Below are positions 1 through 7,082 of a DNA stretch of 64,000 bases, in pieces. The DNA is from Sphagnum compactum (Eukaryota): NCBI GenBank assembly GCA_965153455.1, contig OZ234493.1:13940213-14004212 (forward strand), given 5' to 3'. The notes beneath the pieces are model-generated. The model saw only the letters and a list, made by a program, of their open reading frames with translations. It was not told the origin of the DNA and made no database searches. How positions within the stretch are numbered: position 1 is the first letter of the stretch; each line of letters opens with the position of its first letter. The position numbers and the translations under genes are program-made.

Positions 1-2254
1 TAAAAATTCAAAGTGTTTACCATGCTTGATCTTTCAGCATGGTAATCTTGTGACCTAAAGACAAAGTATCCCAATATAGATCTAATATCCAAATCACCTT
101 CAAAAGGCCCAATCACACATCAAAAGGAATTATATAAATCCATGTCCAAACCTTAAAAGTTAATTCTAACTATGATATGAATGTTGCCTATTTCCCTTTT
201 ATGTCAATTCAATGGCACTTTTAAGCAACAATGTAGATGGACAACCCCCTTGCAAATGGTTGTAACAAGATATAGAAAAGACAATTAAATGTTTGATATG
301 CATTGCTCATCACAACTTGCAACCCACAATTGAACTACCCACAATTTTTGTTACTTAATGGGTGGCTAAATAAAGGTCTTGAACACAATGCCATAGATTC
401 TTAAAATTTACATTATTGTTTTGAGGTTGCCATATATACATAAGACAATAGAAATTATAAAAACATTTGAATAAATATGTTATAATGATATTATTAGTAT
501 TTTTTAAGCATCTATTATTATTCTATGTTGAAATGTTTAAAGTGCTAGTAAGAAGACATAAGGTGACAAAAACTTTCAAATGATTAATACCAAATGTTAT
601 CAAAGCAACTTCCAATGGTTAGTACAATTTAAAACCCCGTTTTCAAATTCAAATTTATGTCCACATCTCATTCAAATAGGTTAAGCATTTACCTTGAAAT
701 CTAATTTGTCGATACAAAAGATATGGGTAAAACCAATGGTTGAACTTTTGGCTCAATTCATTCTAAAGCACACAAGTTGTTGCATGGTTCAACAAAATAA
801 TTCAAATTTAAATATTTACAAGAATGTGAATTCGACTAAATCAAGAAATAATTGTTTGATATTTCATGTCCAAACTATAAATAGCTTGTGGGTATCCTTT
901 TTGAACAATTCAATGTGACAAATCAACAGTTCAAAATGCAAAATGTCTTGTTTGCTTGACAAAAATTACAAATTTTTATTTTCAATCTTTTTTGGTTAAA
1001 ATGTGAGCTAGTCAAGTGCATTGTGTGAGAACAATTTCAAAAACAATTTAATAAATGGCACTAAAGTTATGAATTCCCCTTTCCACAATGCACCCATTAG
1101 CTCTTGTATAATATGGTTCAACAATAAGGTGTCTAATAAAAATAAAATTGGTCATTTATGTTTAGCAACAAAAATAAAAATATTTAGTAACTCGACATTA
1201 GCCTAAATAATGAAGCTAGTGTGCTCGAAAGTTTCCAAAATTGGCAATTCCAAAAAGTTCATCCACAAGTCTTTTTAGTCATCAATAGTGTGGTCATTAG
1301 GGACAAGGGGCCGGTTAACACAAAAAATTTGTGGATCGTTAAACCTTGAGGTAAATAATAGATTGGGTTGCTTTTGTTATAGCAATTAAAAATTTTGCAC
1401 AAGCAAAAAGGGAATAAACATAATTTAATTGGCAACTTCATATCATTTTTCTTCTTTCCTCAATTTTATTGAGTCCTACACCAAGTTTGAATTAGAATCC
1501 ATGTGATGCAAATTCATTAAGGCAATTTCCACATGGAATTATCTAGTAAAACAACATATAAAAACATATTATGCAAAAAGCTTTCTATACTAGCTCAATT
1601 TTAAATATTTGCACGATTTCATAATTTGAGCTTTGCATTGCTACGCACTACTAGCGATGATCAATTATTTATTTTATTTTTCTTATGTTTTCATATGATT
1701 TTCAATAATTCATCATTATTTATGTCAATGACAAATTTTAATAAAAATAAATATACATTTCATGGATATGAAAAGACATATTTTAATTTGTTTTTTTTTT
1801 TAATATCCATGTTGGTGGATAGGGAAAAAGAGTGAGGTGGTTATATAATGGAGATAGTTATTACGAAAGAAATGTAGTTAGGGTTGAAAATGAGGTAGTT
1901 ATTTTCGACAAAAAACCCCATATAACAGTTTTGATTATTTATCACTGAAATTAATATGTAAATGTTATATTAATCACATTGTTCACCAAAAGGGGGGAAA
2001 AATAAATAAATAAATAAAATGTATCCAAATTTTAAACATTTAAATGCACAAGGTTCAACTTTGTGATATCATGATTTGTTGGATTTTGAATGGTTCTTAT
2101 TGTGTTCCCACAAAGTTCTCAATGTGTTCACATCATGTTCTCAATGTGTTCCCATCAAGTTTCAAAACCTGTTCCCATCGAGTTCCCATTCTGTTTCCGT
2201 AGAGGGGGGAAAAGAAAAAGGGGAGTAGTCTTTGGCGTCACACAACTCGGGAGC

Positions 2255-2327
2255 TTCCGTTGCCGGGACTCGAACCCGGGTCGCTCGGGTGAGAGCCGAG
2301 TATCCTAACCATCTAGACTACAACGGA
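2255..2327 (-). tRNA. trnE: tRNA-Glu (anticodon CUC), cytosolic
   Basis: Minus strand reads TCCGTTGTAGTCTAGATGGTTAGGATACTCGGCTCTCACCCGAGCGACCCGGGTTCGAGTCCCGGCAACGGAA. It has the acceptor stem TCCGTTG/CAACGGA, anticodon arm CTCGG-CT[CTC]AC-CCGAG and T-loop GGTTCGAGTCC. An oligo-T terminator lies about 35 nt downstream. Confidence 0.97.
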
Positions 2328-2802
2328 TGACAGGAAATGAGCTGAGAATAAACTACTTGCTTCTTTTACTAGTCATTTTGTCAGGGTTTAGGGTTTACGC
2401 CAGGCTGCAACTGAGATGGAGCTACTACTGCAATAGTGACTCTTTTAGAGGAGAAAATGAACTTTGCAAGCTCTGGTTTTGCATGTCATGATCCATGTGA
2501 CATCCAAATCATGAGCCTTTCTTTACCACAGCAGAGGCACACTAAACATGATGGTCACAATTTATCGTATTCAGATTCTTTTAATATTATATTGATTATA
2601 TAAACATGTTTACACAACTTGACATCAAAAGGATTCGTTCACTAGCATTTGCTGTATTGCTTTGAAAACTGCTGAGAAAGCCTCTCCATCATAAGGTAAT
2701 TGGATATTTAGCAACATAAATTAAGAGTTAAGCTGAAGTTTCAAAATGCAAAATTTGTAGAGTTGGTTGGGTGCAAACATGGGTTCCACGAACTGCATTC
2801 TT

Positions 2803-3235
2803 CTCTGTTTCATCCATGCTGGGCAACAAACCAAGCCAATTGGCTCAGATTTGGAGGATGTCCTTTGCTATTGTCTAAGGTTCCTCAATCATGTACTCAA
2901 TGGACCGAGATTTTGTCCATGGGGTCAGAATGCTCATCTTATGCTGGAGGAAAGAAGCAATAATATTCCCTTTTTTCTTCCAAGTGAGTTCCATGAGCAA
3001 ATCCCCTAGTGCTAAAACTAGCTCTGTTTCATCCATGCTCTGCTACAATCCAAGCCAATTGGCTCTGATTAGGAGGACCTTCCCTGTCTAAGGTTCCACA
3101 ATCATGTACTCAATGGACTGCCATTTCGCCCATGGGGTCACACAGAATCCTCATCTTGTGCTGAAGGAAAGAAGCAGCAACATTCCCTTTTTTCTTCCAA
3201 GTGAATTCCATGAGCAAATCCCTCGGTGCTAGACT
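2803..3235. repeat. Diverged tandem duplication, 2 x ~215 bp
   Basis: 2803-3018 and 3023-3235 align by eye (ctctgtttcatccatgct...ccaagccaattggctc...aatcatgtactcaatggac...ttccatgagcaaatccc). Confidence 0.9.
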
Positions 3236-3501
3236 TCCTTCTTTCTGCCTGAAGTAGACGATACTCAGGGTGGGGTGATCCAGAGCCTTGTAAGAGGTCT
3301 TGCTGTCAGCGTCAGAAGAGAACCCTGTTTCAGGTCCATCTGAAAACCCTAATCCATTCCTCTTGCTTCTGGAGATTTAGTGTAGGAAATGTATGGGGCT
3401 AAGAAGGCAGGAGGTTTATCAGCTCAACCATCAATCCCATGAACTCAGGGCAGTCGCAGCATGAAATGCTCAACGCAGACACCTCATGTTGATAACTGAG
3501 A

Positions 3502-3790
3502 TCTCATCAGCCATAATACCAGTTAGATTCCCCGCTTCACAATCTCTGAAGGTTGACAACAAGTACCTTCCAAGAGGGTCAAAAAAACGTGGCCTTGGCC
3601 AAGCTGCTTAAACCCTAAACCCCTCCCTGTTGTTCCTGACTCAGTTCTCATTCAGCCAAAATACCAGTTAAATTTCCCACTTCACAGACTCAGGAGCTTG
3701 AAAACAAAGCACTTTCCAAGAGTGTCAAAAAACATGGGCTTGGCCAAGCTGCATGAACCCTAAACCTTCCCTGTTGTTCCTAACCCAGTC
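3502..3790. repeat. Diverged tandem duplication, 2 x ~144 bp
   Basis: 3502-3645 and 3646-3790 align (tctca..cagcca.aataccagtta...ttccaagag.gtcaaaaaa...ttggccaagctgc...aaccctaaacc..ccctgttgttcct). It abuts the stop codon of the domain-X gene. Confidence 0.9.
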
Positions 3791-3806
3791 ATCATCATTC
3801 TGCTTG

Positions 3807-4796
3807 CTATCTCCACTCTCGCTTGCTCCTCTCAAAAGCTTGCTGCAGAATAGAAACTTCACAGTAACGTCGGTCTCTAGTGTTGAACTTCCCTGTGGTT
3901 TTCAAAGAAGTAGGATAGTACAGAGATGTGACCTCTTTGCCGTGTTCAGAGATCCGCAGATAGGGTCCGAATCTTTTGAAAGCAGCCGCCGCTGATCGCA
4001 TGCTATGCTTCCTTGCCAATGTGAGAGCACAAGACTTTCTGTAGATGGAGGTCACCTTCCACAGCGACGAGCGCTTGTTCACAAATGCGTAGTAGTCCAC
4101 GATGCTGCGTATGATGCACGAGAAGTGATTCACAATGACTCTGTCCTCTGCTGCAGAATACTTCGGCTGCGAAGTCGCTCGAGCCAACCCAATTGCGTTC
4201 TTCTTCGCATATCCTCTTTCCACAGCTTCCGCGATCAGATCCCTAACGGGTGCCAGTAGTCGCGGCTTCGACATGGAATACAGTCTGCTCTTTCTGCTGC
4301 TGTTGCCAACTCTTTTGTTGCGCCTCACTTCCACTTCGCCATCGCCGTCGTCTTCGTCTTCTTCAAAACCCTCCTCCTCATCTTCTTCCTCTTCATCTTC
4401 ACTAAGGTGGGTGTCAGCCTGAGCCTCCACAGGCGCAACTAAATTTCTTCTTCCTCGAGACAATCGAAGCTCCCTGGAGTCCATGAGCTGTGTTCTAGTA
4501 GAGAACATTCGTGTGCGAGTCAGCAATCTCTGGGAAAACTCTCCTCCCACTTCTTCTTCTGCGATCCATTTGGAGGCAGTAGCCAGGGGGAATGCTGCTC
4601 TTCTTCTAGTAGCGGCGGCTGCAGCATTCGACGACACCCTCCTCATCTCCTCCTGTGCCGTTGTCAAATGAAAACGACAACAAGAAGACCACATGAAATC
4701 CGAGCAAGCTTCCGACAACTGATTCTTCTTCTTCCTCACACACCTTCCTGCCGCAGTCTGCAGCAATCGACTACCAAAAGAGGACCAAGGATTCAT
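3807..4796 (-). CDS. Stand-alone group II intron maturase domain X protein (Intron_maturas2-like), no RT domain, putative organelle (mitochondrial) presequence
   Basis: Uninterrupted single-exon ORF. First ATG is at 4796 (329 aa), with an alternative ATG at 4646; the ORF-track start at 4931 is GTG. The C-terminal ~130 aa (4265-3882) PRLLAPVRDLIAEAVERGY...IVNHFSCIIRSIVDYYAFVNKRSSLWKVTSIYRKSCALTLARKHSMRSAAAAFKRFG matches the domain X pattern (L.AP...G[FY]; I..YY.F.N; S.ALTLA.K; K.[FY]G). The N-terminus is R/S/A-rich with an R-3-like RMF|ST site, followed by an acidic tract. Confidence 0.85.
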   Translation of the reverse strand: MNPWSSFGSRLLQTAAGRCVRKKKNQLSEACSDFMWSSCCRFHLTTAQEEMRRVSSNAAAAATRRRAAFPLATASKWIAEEEVGGEFSQRLLTRTRMFSTRTQLMDSRELRLSRGRRNLVAPVEAQADTHLSEDEEEEDEEEGFEEDEDDGDGEVEVRRNKRVGNSSRKSRLYSMSKPRLLAPVRDLIAEAVERGYAKKNAIGLARATSQPKYSAAEDRVIVNHFSCIIRSIVDYYAFVNKRSSLWKVTSIYRKSCALTLARKHSMRSAAAAFKRFGPYLRISEHGKEVTSLYYPTSLKTTGKFNTRDRRYCEVSILQQAFERSKREWR

Positions 4797-5208
4797 GACA
4801 TCAGACAAAAGAAAATCCCGCACTTGCTTGCTGCCCCTCGTCGTGGTGCACGAGCAGCAGCGACAGCTCCTACGAGCCTGAGCTCTCCATTTTCTAGCGG
4901 ATGCGAGCAAGCTCTTGCAGCGCAGCAGCACCTCCTGTTAGGGTTTTGTGAGCGTTGCTGCTGTTGTCGCGCGCGTACTTTGCGCCTCTAGACTGACAAA
5001 ACCCTAACACTTTTGATCTCTGGTCGGGTTTCCACCCGTCTTCTCGCTCGCCCCAACTGAAGAGACATACATTCATTGTTGCTCACCTTCATTTGCGGAT
5101 TTACTGTTGTGGGTACTGAGCAGAATTTCTCGAGACTGAAGCTCGAATGTTGTGAGGATTGCTGAAGGAGAGGGAGAGACAGAGACAAAAAGAAGGAGAG
5201 AGACTGAG
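4797..5208. promoter_or_regulatory. Putative bidirectional promoter/5'UTR region with telo-boxes
   Basis: 412 bp separate the divergent ATGs at 4796(-) and 5209(+). The interval has TTAGGGTTTT at 4938-4947, AAAACCCTAA at 4998-5007, retained CpGs and a GA-rich tract before the GIF ATG. Confidence 0.6.
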
Positions 5209-7082
5209 ATGATGCAGCAGCAAATGGCAGCTTATGCTAGCACCACTATCAGCACCGAGCTAATACAGAAGGTACGCTCAAGCTCCCGGTGCAGACCCAA
5301 GGACCATCTTCTTCCATCATGTACTGCACTCTCTCTCTCTCTCTCTCTCTCTGAGTTGTTTCCAGTACTGTCCGATGAAGATTCAAAGCTGCTTTTGCCT
5401 TTCTCTTTGTATGTGTGGAGTTCATTCTGCACTTTACTGGAAACCGGGCTACACACACACACGCAGAGACAGAGACAGACAGATTCCTGCAGAGGAGATC
5501 ATCTCTGCCTTGTAGGAAAACCCTATTCAACAAACAATTTGCAATCTGTGTTCTTTGATAAAACAAGCTTGCTGTTGCCTAACTGTGCTTGCAAAACAAT
5601 GTAGTTGTCTTCTCTGGGGGCAGCAGGGGTTTATGAGTGGAGGGGTTTCTGTGTAACATTGCTAACTTTTTTGCCGAGAATCTCTGGGTGCAAGAGAATT
5701 CTGCAAGGGATGTTGACTGAAAAATCCTTCATCTCCACAATTGTTTATGATAACTCTCTTGCTGCTGAGAGAGCTCTGGAGCTTTGTTTTTCGTTTTTTT
5801 TTGTTTTTCTTTCCAGCCTTGCTTGATAATGGACTATCTGATAATGATGCTATCCTTCTATTCACAATTCTCAAGGCTACTCAGTTATGGTTGTGCAAAA
5901 AGATGTGAGAGATATCTATCACACAGCGATTGAGCTCTTGCACTGGAACTCTAAACCCTGGATGCAATATTAGAGATGTGTACCTGGGCTGCCCTGCTTG
6001 CCTAGTGTATCTGCTCGACCCCACTAATGTCATGACTGATTTGATGTGGAAGAGGGGCTGCGGATTGTGCAGTATTTGGATGAGAACAAGCAGCTTATTC
6101 TTGCTATTCTCGACAACCAAAACCTTGGAAAGCTCAATGAATGTGCAACGTAAGTGGAATGGTGTACCAGCTTTTTTTTTTCAAGTATCTACTATCTTTT
6201 CTTTTGACACAGAGCTGTCTCCTGGGATTTGTATGCGTCTGGAAATGAGGTAGTAATCTTATCAAGTGTTATGATCTGAGCTTATCCTGTGTTGGTGGGG
6301 CTGTGCAGTTACCAAGCCAAGCTGCAGCAGAATCTCATGTATCTGGCAGCCATAGCTGATGCGCAGCCACAAGCAGTCCAGAGTTCGCCTCAGGTACTTC
6401 TCTGTAAAAGGGAACACTGACTGACATTCATGACAGTAATCTGAATTTTTCTTCAAGTCCTCCATGTAAATTTGGAGTGCAAAAGAAGGGTGTATTGATT
6501 CATTCTTCCATTTAGACAAGCATTCTCAGCCAATATATGCAAGTGTTGACATGATGCATATGCCTCATGTGGATTCCAATATCTCAAATTCTGCCAAATT
6601 TGTAGTCAATTCACTTTTTCATTTCTCCCAAGTCATTAAGCTTGACTAACTGATGTTGAAAGTGAGCCACACAGGCTGCCCCAACACCATCAATGCAACA
6701 ACAATACCTGCAGCAGCAGCAACTCATGATGAGCCAAAGGACACCAATCCCACAATATCTGCAACAAAGCCAACAGGTCTCACCGCACATGTCACAGCAT
6801 TCCTATCATAGCCAACAAGGAATAGTGTCTGGTGGGGGTGCAGGAGGCCATTTGATGTCCAATGATGGAGCCACAGGGCCTGGTAATGGCACTCAGTCCA
6901 TGGGTGGATTACCAGAATATGGAAAATTGCCTGGATCTAGGGATGGGGGGAACCAGACAATGGGCATAATAGGAGGGGTTGCAGGGTCATCACCACTCAG
7001 CCATCCTGGAAAAGATGGAGGATCTGTGCAGGGTGGGGATGAATCAGAGGTCTCATATTTGAAGGGCTCTGAAGAGGATTGA
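5209..7082 (+). CDS. GIF: GRF-interacting factor (GIF/AN3/SYT family, SSXT domain), 4 exons, ~210 aa
   Basis: Exons 5209-5271, 6073-6149, 6309-6393 and 6675-7082 are all GT-AG and frame-consistent. Spliced protein: MMQQQMAAYASTTISTELIQK-YLDENKQLILAILDNQNLGKLNECATYQAKLQQNLMYLAAIADAQP (SSXT/SNH domain), then a Q/G-rich region ending SYLKGSEED. Confidence 0.95.
5329..5352 (+). repeat. (CT)n microsatellite in GIF intron 1
   Basis: Direct CT dinucleotide run; (AC)n and GACA/GAGA runs also occur at about 5451-5483. Confidence 0.9.

Follow-up and report, generated by a model that had tools for sequence, protein, structure and literature searches.

A nuclear domain X protein of mosses that lacks a reverse transcriptase and is related to the mitochondrial atp9 intron maturase

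On the minus strand of a 64,000-nucleotide stretch of Sphagnum compactum DNA (contig OZ234493.1, positions 13,940,213 to 14,004,212; here called the window) lies a transcribed nuclear gene for a protein of 329 amino acids that has kept domain X, the thumb, of a group II intron maturase and that lacks the reverse transcriptase (RT) part of such enzymes. The same build recurs across the mosses, and this conserved absence of the RT is the notable part of the finding. The moss proteins form one clade beside mat-atp9i87g2, the maturase encoded in the mitochondrial DNA (mtDNA) of liverworts and lycophytes by intron atp9i87g2, and we propose, at a probability of about 60%, that the window protein is imported into mitochondria and would act there in trans as a splicing cofactor for that intron. 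The parts of the gene are as follows, with the evidence for each in brackets.

3807..4796, minus strand: complete coding sequence, 329 codons plus stop, intronless (list of open reading frames, translation, sense polyA reads)
3819..4283, minus strand: residues ~172-326, the thumb or domain X of the group II intron maturases (Pfam, hhalign, AlphaFold, VIA-align, invariant columns)
4329..4400, minus strand: acidic tract, residues 133-156, EDEEEEDEEEGFEEDEDDGDGEVE (D/E against K/R counts)
4401..4796, minus strand: N-terminal region, residues 1-132, predicted to be disordered and presequence-like (predicted local distance difference test, pLDDT, below 50; composition; comparison with the paralogue)
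4796-4794, 4646-4644 and 4500-4511, minus strand: Met1, the internal Met51 and an R-M-F|S-T motif, respectively

A reading frame with a single maturase domain

The open reading frame (ORF) starts with ATG and contains no internal stop, the nearest in-frame stop upstream lying near 4940, and the ORF list, the translation and sense reads free of splice joints agree with the original prediction, made from the sequence alone, of an intact intronless gene of 329 codons. A single Pfam family matches the product significantly, PF01348 (Intron_maturas2; E 4.2e-20, 72.6 bits against a gathering cut-off of 20.8 bits), over residues 177-287 or window positions 4268-3936; the remaining four Pfam rows are at chance level (E 0.07 or more), and RVT_1, GIIM and HNH gave no match at E<=1. 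Domain X is therefore the sole recognisable domain, as had been claimed, and Intron_maturas2 appears without RVT_1, as had been expected. RT-coding DNA was sought across the whole 64 kb by tblastn with the full-length maturases P0027, P0197, P0026 and P0030 (P numbers are our own handles), and just 4295-3831 was matched, everything else having E>5. Rfam detected no group II intron RNA at E<=1 in 1500-6500, where it returned a tRNA and one chance-level match to an sRNA. These searches uphold the earlier statement that the gene has no HNH endonuclease, no RT and no intron RNA around it.

Profile-profile comparison with eleven full-length maturases (hhalign) gave an aligned part confined to residues 172-324, at 64% identity, and because homology is limited to these residues we place the break with the ancestral protein in the linker just before domain X. 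At the other end the protein stops a few residues past domain X and has no C-terminal DNA-binding or HNH endonuclease domain. The hallmarks of a canonical group II intron RT/maturase, motifs RT0-7 with YADD and an ORF within intron domain IV, are thus absent from the window gene. That the N-terminal region might be a decayed RT was considered and rejected, since it gives hhalign and phmmer signal only in P0004 and in the paralogue P0006, and since its length is far below that of the approximately 630 residues preceding domain X in P0027.

In an AlphaFold2 model built with an 18-row alignment, domain X is predicted to be the sole folded part of the protein, with block means of pLDDT of 79-97 over residues 181-300 and values below 50 over residues 4-145 and 152-178. 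The best match found by VIA-align is the thumb of LtrA from the Lactococcus group II intron ribonucleoprotein (8h2h, 5g2x), residues 379-516 of chain 8h2h_D aligning with model residues 173-303 at Z 14.0 (129 residues aligned, root-mean-square deviation 5.3). Another intron RT, 7d0f_C, follows at Z 8.3, and unrelated helical proteins reach Z 6.3 or less. Foldseek by itself returned nothing at E<=0.001, its best match being 8h2h_D at 1.6e-3, and a sequence search of solved structures gave chance matches to the acidic tract only, all with E about 0.9. By its pLDDT and by both Z scores the model has the helical thumb-like fold of solved group II intron RTs, which makes the folded part a genuine thumb. 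The LtrA thumb differs in being one domain of a 599-residue RT, and its identity to the window domain is 16%.

Domain X has a net charge of +19, and its conservation is high at two levels. Of the 46 columns that are invariant in the eleven full-length organellar maturases, the window protein retains 37, and 27 are retained in all eight moss proteins compared, the changes being mostly conservative. An alignment of ten moss proteins that spans Sphagnum and Physcomitrium has 72 invariant columns, every one of them within domain X. An ORF of the same length on contig L001 encodes a protein 97% identical to the window protein; in the metagenome scan just one of 585 pattern matches held a related locus. 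Between the window ORF and L001, the ratio of nonsynonymous to synonymous rates (dN/dS, Nei-Gojobori) is 0.37 for the whole ORF (10 nonsynonymous and 8 synonymous changes), 0.75 for the N-terminal 170 codons (8 and 3) and 0.12 for domain X (2 and 5). These comparisons suggest that domain X is under purifying selection, and the ten-protein moss comparison appears to be stronger evidence for this than the small dN/dS counts.

Transcription was followed in a stranded polyA RNA-seq run with the same species label, of which about 12% was read; 150 reads were placed, 145 of them at >=99% identity. All 11 reads spanning an intron of the neighbouring plus-strand gene have their first mate on the minus strand, and therefore a first mate on the plus strand marks minus-strand RNA. 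Sense reads defined in this way cover 3000-4818 at a mean depth of 2.4-11.9, except in one bin of depth 0.7 that falls on the acidic tract, a segment passed over by the tool as repetitive. At the 5' end sense depth drops from 6.4 (4712-4818) to 0.7 (4819-4925); beyond 4818 it stays at 0.7-2.4 up to 5353 and is then 0, and an RNA-library contig also ends at 4818. No splice joints are listed for the polyA run within 3000-5200. From this depth profile, the joint-free reads and the contig end, we conclude that the locus gives rise to an unspliced, polyadenylated sense RNA starting close to 4818. Antisense (plus-strand) polyA reads are present as well, at depth 0.7-8.7 over 3642-5139 and 0.7-5.6 over the ORF itself.

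The gene is nuclear, as is evident from the GT..AG intron of its neighbour, the polyadenylated RNA, the tRNA-Glu(CTC) gene nearby and the location of its relatives on Sphagnum chromosomes: the 90% cluster of P0002, which is 97% identical, comprises proteins of Sphagnum fallax, S. magellanicum, S. jensenii and S. troendelagicum from chromosome records of 18-21 Mb. The original description of the gene as nuclear and intronless is supported, and the polyA reads, which are free of joints, show that it is expressed.

Moss relatives and the mitochondrial atp9 lineage

The same build is found in Sphagnum, which has two such genes, in Ceratodon, in Physcomitrium and in further moss-like transcripts. 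In Pfam scans, Intron_maturas2 was present in 16 of 16 moss members and RVT_1 in none of the 16, and RVT_1 was detected in both mitochondrial controls (P0027 and P0197). No RT-bearing member of the moss clade occurs among the candidates of 180-2000 aa in two large protein libraries. The other gene in Sphagnum, a paralogue with 47% overall identity, is represented by S. magellanicum locus 15G045900 (368 aa). The best full-length matches are a cluster with the Marchantia mitochondrial 'Atp9 intron ORF' / Mp_Mg00880 and a cluster with the lycophyte 'Mat-atp9i87g2c', and the window domain X is 62-66% identical to both mat-atp9i87g2 clusters.

To place these proteins we picked 63 matches by hand, the closest ones together with library representatives to about E 1e-16, and kept the 56 that covered at least 115 of 164 query positions. 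The maximum-likelihood tree of these 56 domain X segments (162 columns, LG+C20+F+G4, 200 bootstrap trees) has no nMAT, matR or matK rows, and the four library representatives that could be named, of ten first looked up, are brown alga, diatom and Volvox-type organellar ORFs. The moss nuclear proteins, including those of Physcomitrium (P0017) and Ceratodon (P0016), form one clade with support of 100/99, which is present in 100% of the 200 bootstrap trees. Inside this clade the two paralogues from Sphagnum pair with each other as sisters (98/94). The moss clade is sister to liverwort and lycophyte mat-atp9i87g2 (94/81), and the chlorophyte mitochondrial ORFs of Ostreobium and Bryopsis fall outside the grouping of both (95/90). 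This topology fits a single transfer of mat-atp9i87g2 to the nucleus before Sphagnum and the other mosses diverged, and by their position in the tree the window gene and the Physcomitrium nuclear gene are orthologous.

The descent from a mitochondrial intron maturase lineage that had been suggested for the domain is in accord with both the sister relationship to mat-atp9i87g2 and the identity over domain X. The original prediction had in addition called the transfer independent. A transfer separate from those of the angiosperm nMATs is likely, because passages of PMC10012718 put the nMATs and matR with other intron families (nMAT1/2 with F03, nMAT3/4 with F10, matR with F17) than F07, which consists of atp9i87g2, nad2i156g2, nad1i477g2 and cobi372g2; our tree, although it agrees with this, was built without nMAT rows. 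Another nuclear gene, P. patens mat-nuc1, was considered as a member of the window gene's family and rejected, since the same passages place it in the F01 clade with free-standing liverwort maturases.

Within the moss clade, the Physcomitrium protein XP_024388226.1 (210 aa) is likewise domain-X-only with a presequence-like N-terminus. It is shorter than the Sphagnum protein and lacks the acidic tract of the latter, and Sphagnum has two diverged paralogues. The mat-atp9i87g2 proteins (Marchantia P0027, 781 aa; Phylloglossum P0197, 749 aa) end right past domain X and have no endonuclease, like the window protein, but they are encoded within an intron in mtDNA and carry RVT_1, whereas the window protein is nuclear, RT-less and has an unrelated N-terminal region. 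The nMAT1-4 proteins resemble it in being nuclear, in deriving from mitochondrial intron maturases, in having N-terminal targeting sequences and in serving mitochondrial intron splicing, and differ in keeping a deviant RT domain beside domain X (PMC3927076, in part). It is the published families, F03 and F10 against F07, rather than a direct sequence comparison, that set nMAT1-4 apart from the window gene. MatK and MatR are similar in that their mobility functions are lost and domain X is well conserved (PMC3927076, in part). They are organelle-encoded, however, and keep degenerate RT motifs, whereas the moss protein has no RT remnant by Pfam or hhalign. According to the same excerpted source, MatR, MatK and nMAT1-4 all retain RT-derived sequence.

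In the mitochondrial relatives, the catalytic RT motif YADD is itself altered: RT5 reads YADN or YADE in P0027, P0018 and P0021. These are liverwort and lycophyte maturases, and with the catalytic motif changed, reverse transcription may already have been impaired in the lineage before any transfer. Full-length maturases of the mat-atp9i87g2 type are also abundant in environmental metagenomes, as represented by the P0029 cluster (816 aa, 25 members, contigs up to 82 kb), which groups with the liverwort clade in the tree.

Part of this picture was already in print. The text of PMC7049729, as excerpted, describes atp9i87g2 as conserved in liverworts, mosses, hornworts and lycophytes, with mosses keeping the intron with just degenerate traces of its maturase, the pseudogene remnants varying among moss mtDNAs. 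It also mentions, citing Guo & Mower 2013, two Physcomitrella nuclear genes similar to mat-atp9i87g2 that were proposed to be imported splicing factors, the same role as we propose for the window protein. Because these relatives had been noted there as possible splicing factors, the origin is not new, and the novelty that had been supposed for origin and role does not hold; the proteins, too, had already been deposited, those of Sphagnum, Ceratodon and Physcomitrium being labelled 'Domain X domain-containing protein', 'hypothetical protein' or 'maturase K' in the databases. Whether the gene belongs to an already characterised family has a divided answer: the family has been noticed in print, but we found no functional study of it. 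A phrase search found no published account of a domain-X-only or RT-less maturase, a search that did not extend to supplements (maturase trees, moss ORF status). What the present analysis adds is the RT-less build in all of the moss members examined, their grouping in a single old clade with both Sphagnum paralogues in it, the transcription of the gene, the purifying selection on domain X and the thumb fold of the folded part.

These data also bear on whether the gene is alive. An intronless, organelle-derived ORF from which most of the ancestral protein is gone could be a dead insert of organelle DNA (NUMT) or a decaying pseudogene that is open by chance. Against this, sense polyA RNA is present, a relative has an ORF of equal length, and two paralogues are retained in Sphagnum; neither flanking mitochondrial sequence (tblastn over 64 kb) nor intron RNA (Rfam, 1500-6500) was found. 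Orthologues and dN/dS were the points on which the original prediction had expected a dead copy to reveal itself, and the orthologues are open across mosses and the value for domain X is not near 1. Expression, conservation, the tree and selection together effectively refute this explanation.

The missing RT could alternatively be supplied by another polypeptide. A nuclear domain X would then work together with a mitochondrial RT-like protein, either the product of a remnant ORF in atp9i87g2 or another maturase, as a split maturase. The position of the break, in the linker immediately before domain X, would suit such an arrangement, as would the variable pseudogene traces retained in moss mtDNAs (PMC7049729, in part) and the title of Cui et al. 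2004, by which both domains are needed for splicing. The moss atp9i87g2 reading frame is called degenerated in the same excerpt of PMC7049729, however, and the moss clade has no RT-bearing relative in the size range searched, so that we consider a split maturase very improbable.

Proposed role and competing explanations

In the role that we favour, the nuclear-encoded protein would be imported into mitochondria by means of its N-terminal presequence. There the basic domain X would bind its ancestral intron, atp9i87g2, through its RNA-contact surface and help the intron to fold, so that the protein would serve as a trans-acting splicing cofactor in place of the intron-borne maturase that has decayed in moss mtDNA. 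A possible second target would be the F07 relative nad2i156g2. A stronger form of this proposal, in which the lone domain X suffices as a trans-acting maturase, is specific for atp9i87g2 and has been kept in this state by mosses for hundreds of millions of years, is one that we hold only tentatively and that may well be wrong. If a lone thumb were sufficient, it would be the smallest natural maturase known, and the RT part, reported to be necessary for splicing by the bacterial LtrA, would be dispensable in vivo.

Nuclear maturases are informative about how organelle introns came to rely on proteins of the host, and the origin of the spliceosome is modelled on them. A thumb-only family under purifying selection whose cognate intron has lost its maturase offers a simple test of what the RT contributes to splicing, and targeted knockouts are possible in Physcomitrium, so the question of a lone-thumb maturase is practical to test. 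For annotation, the present Sphagnum labels could be replaced by 'nuclear mat-atp9i87g2-derived domain-X protein'.

Import of the protein is suggested by its N-terminal region. Acidic residues are absent from the first 28 positions and begin at position 29; residues 1-40 include 6 K/R and 2 D/E. An R-M-F|S-T motif at residues 96-100, with the equivalent R-L-F|S-S in the chr15 paralogue, resembles the -3R pattern of the mitochondrial processing peptidase. The two Sphagnum proteins also share MNPxSS..RLL..VRKK and TR(M/L)F-S-RT. In the two large protein libraries the N-terminal approximately 160 residues find a counterpart in just two proteins, P0004 and the paralogue P0006 (the latter from residue 95 onwards), the other matches being confined to residues ~150-329. 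The N-termini of six moss members, although unlike in sequence, are all basic and rich in hydroxyl residues (S/T), with a late first acidic residue. From these properties we infer a targeting function for the N-terminal region. The leader quoted in the original prediction, MRRVSS..., does occur in the ORF, but it begins at the internal Met51 (ATG 4646) and not at Met1 (MNPWSS...); Met1 is the more likely start because it lies within the transcript and because the chr15 paralogue begins in nearly the same way, with MNPCSS.

The acidic tract, which had also been noticed earlier, is real: residues 126-157 contain 20 D/E and no K/R, a net charge of -20 against +19 for domain X. Acidic runs occupy the equivalent place in the Sphagnum chr15 paralogue, P0013, P0014 and Ceratodon, and Physcomitrium has none, so the tract cannot be essential to the core function. 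It may shield domain X or keep it soluble, and it might serve as an internal RNA mimic that covers the basic domain until the intron is met.

The composition of this part of the protein can be read differently. With basic patches (KKK and RRNKR), a long acidic run and 178 N-terminal residues that are disordered in the AlphaFold2 model, domain X might have been re-used outside organelles, for example in a nuclear or cytosolic RNA-binding protein whose low-complexity region is a nuclear or nucleolar signal. Such a use is improbable in our view, as the six moss N-termini start acid-poor, basic and S/T-rich, a pattern typical of targeting peptides, the acidic tract is missing from Physcomitrium, and domain X is conserved at the maturase-invariant positions.

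The role might also lie elsewhere in organelle RNA metabolism, the origin of the protein being the same. It could be a chloroplast factor, since S/T-rich N-termini do not tell plastid from mitochondrial targeting, or a general mitochondrial cofactor that serves many introns in a complex with PPR, CRM or helicase proteins. The RT part anchors canonical maturases on domain IVa, and specificity may be low without it. Angiosperm nMATs and MatK do act on several introns, as excerpts of PMC3927076 and PMC4424553 report. On the other side, the 37 of 46 maturase-invariant positions kept and the identity to mat-atp9i87g2 fit a retained ancestral RNA partner, and the cognate intron persists in mosses without a maturase of its own (PMC7049729, in part). 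We regard a role of this broader kind as unlikely, though it deserves attention.

Several points weigh against the role as splicing cofactor for atp9i87g2 that we prefer. The support that ties the moss clade to its mitochondrial sister group falls just under the star threshold of the tool, the dN/dS values rest on small counts (18 changes altogether), and part of the RNA signal at the locus is not sense mRNA, because antisense polyA reads cover the ORF. Nuclear proteins, too, contain acidic and basic low-complexity regions, and cleavage at R-M-F|S would give an unusually long presequence of 98 residues. A bacterial maturase reportedly requires both its RT and its X domain to promote splicing, judging from the title of Cui et al. 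2004 (cited in PMC4424553), and for this reason a lone thumb may depend on partners or play a more limited part. Localisation, RNA-binding or splicing data for a member of the family were not found in the literature searched, and the search for a Physcomitrium maturase knockout gave PPR studies only.

The locus and its surroundings

Three further features were placed around the gene.

3000..3806, minus strand: 3' untranslated region, at least 800 nt (continuous sense polyA depth of 3.4-9.4 over 3000-3855, free of joints)
4797..5208, no strand assigned: shared divergent promoter and CpG island of the window gene and its plus-strand neighbour, ATG at 5209 (CpG observed/expected, depth drop, neighbour's exon)
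2255-2327, minus strand: tRNA-Glu(CTC) gene, some 1.5 kb beyond the 3' end of the ORF (Rfam 63.9 bits, ARAGORN)

The gene had been described as lying in an island that retains CpG, and the measurements agree: CpG observed/expected reaches 0.81 in the coding sequence and 0.79 over 4797-5208, and the nine other stretches measured all fall at 0.16-0.43. With 0.19 in the 3' untranslated region and 0.28 in the gene body of the neighbour, the island is limited to 3807-5208, which hints that methylation spares only this stretch of 1.4 kb. The GC content of the ORF and the 400 bp upstream is likewise above that of the AT-rich flanks.

The plus-strand neighbour, called GIF in the original prediction, starts with MMQQQMAAYAS... 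at ATG 5209, and its first exon is spliced from 5269 to 6071 (GT..AG, 11 reads). A further splice donor lies near 6149, where 18 reads have loose ends (window 5209-6149, plus strand). The antisense reads over the window gene continue into the first exon of this neighbour and may represent a long 5' leader or a natural antisense RNA.

Two repeats lie on the 3' side of the ORF. An imperfect tandem duplication of about 145 nt, with 82-90% identity, occupies 3507-3795, directly 3' of the stop codon and inside the 3' untranslated region; its direct repeats D1-D3 are spaced 144-145, and the listing of Tandem Repeats Finder does not include it. A 217-bp tandem repeat at 2803-3222 has 1.9 copies with 85% match, and contigs of two RNA libraries from related plants show a back-step joint of 217 there, which suggests an extra copy in these relatives.

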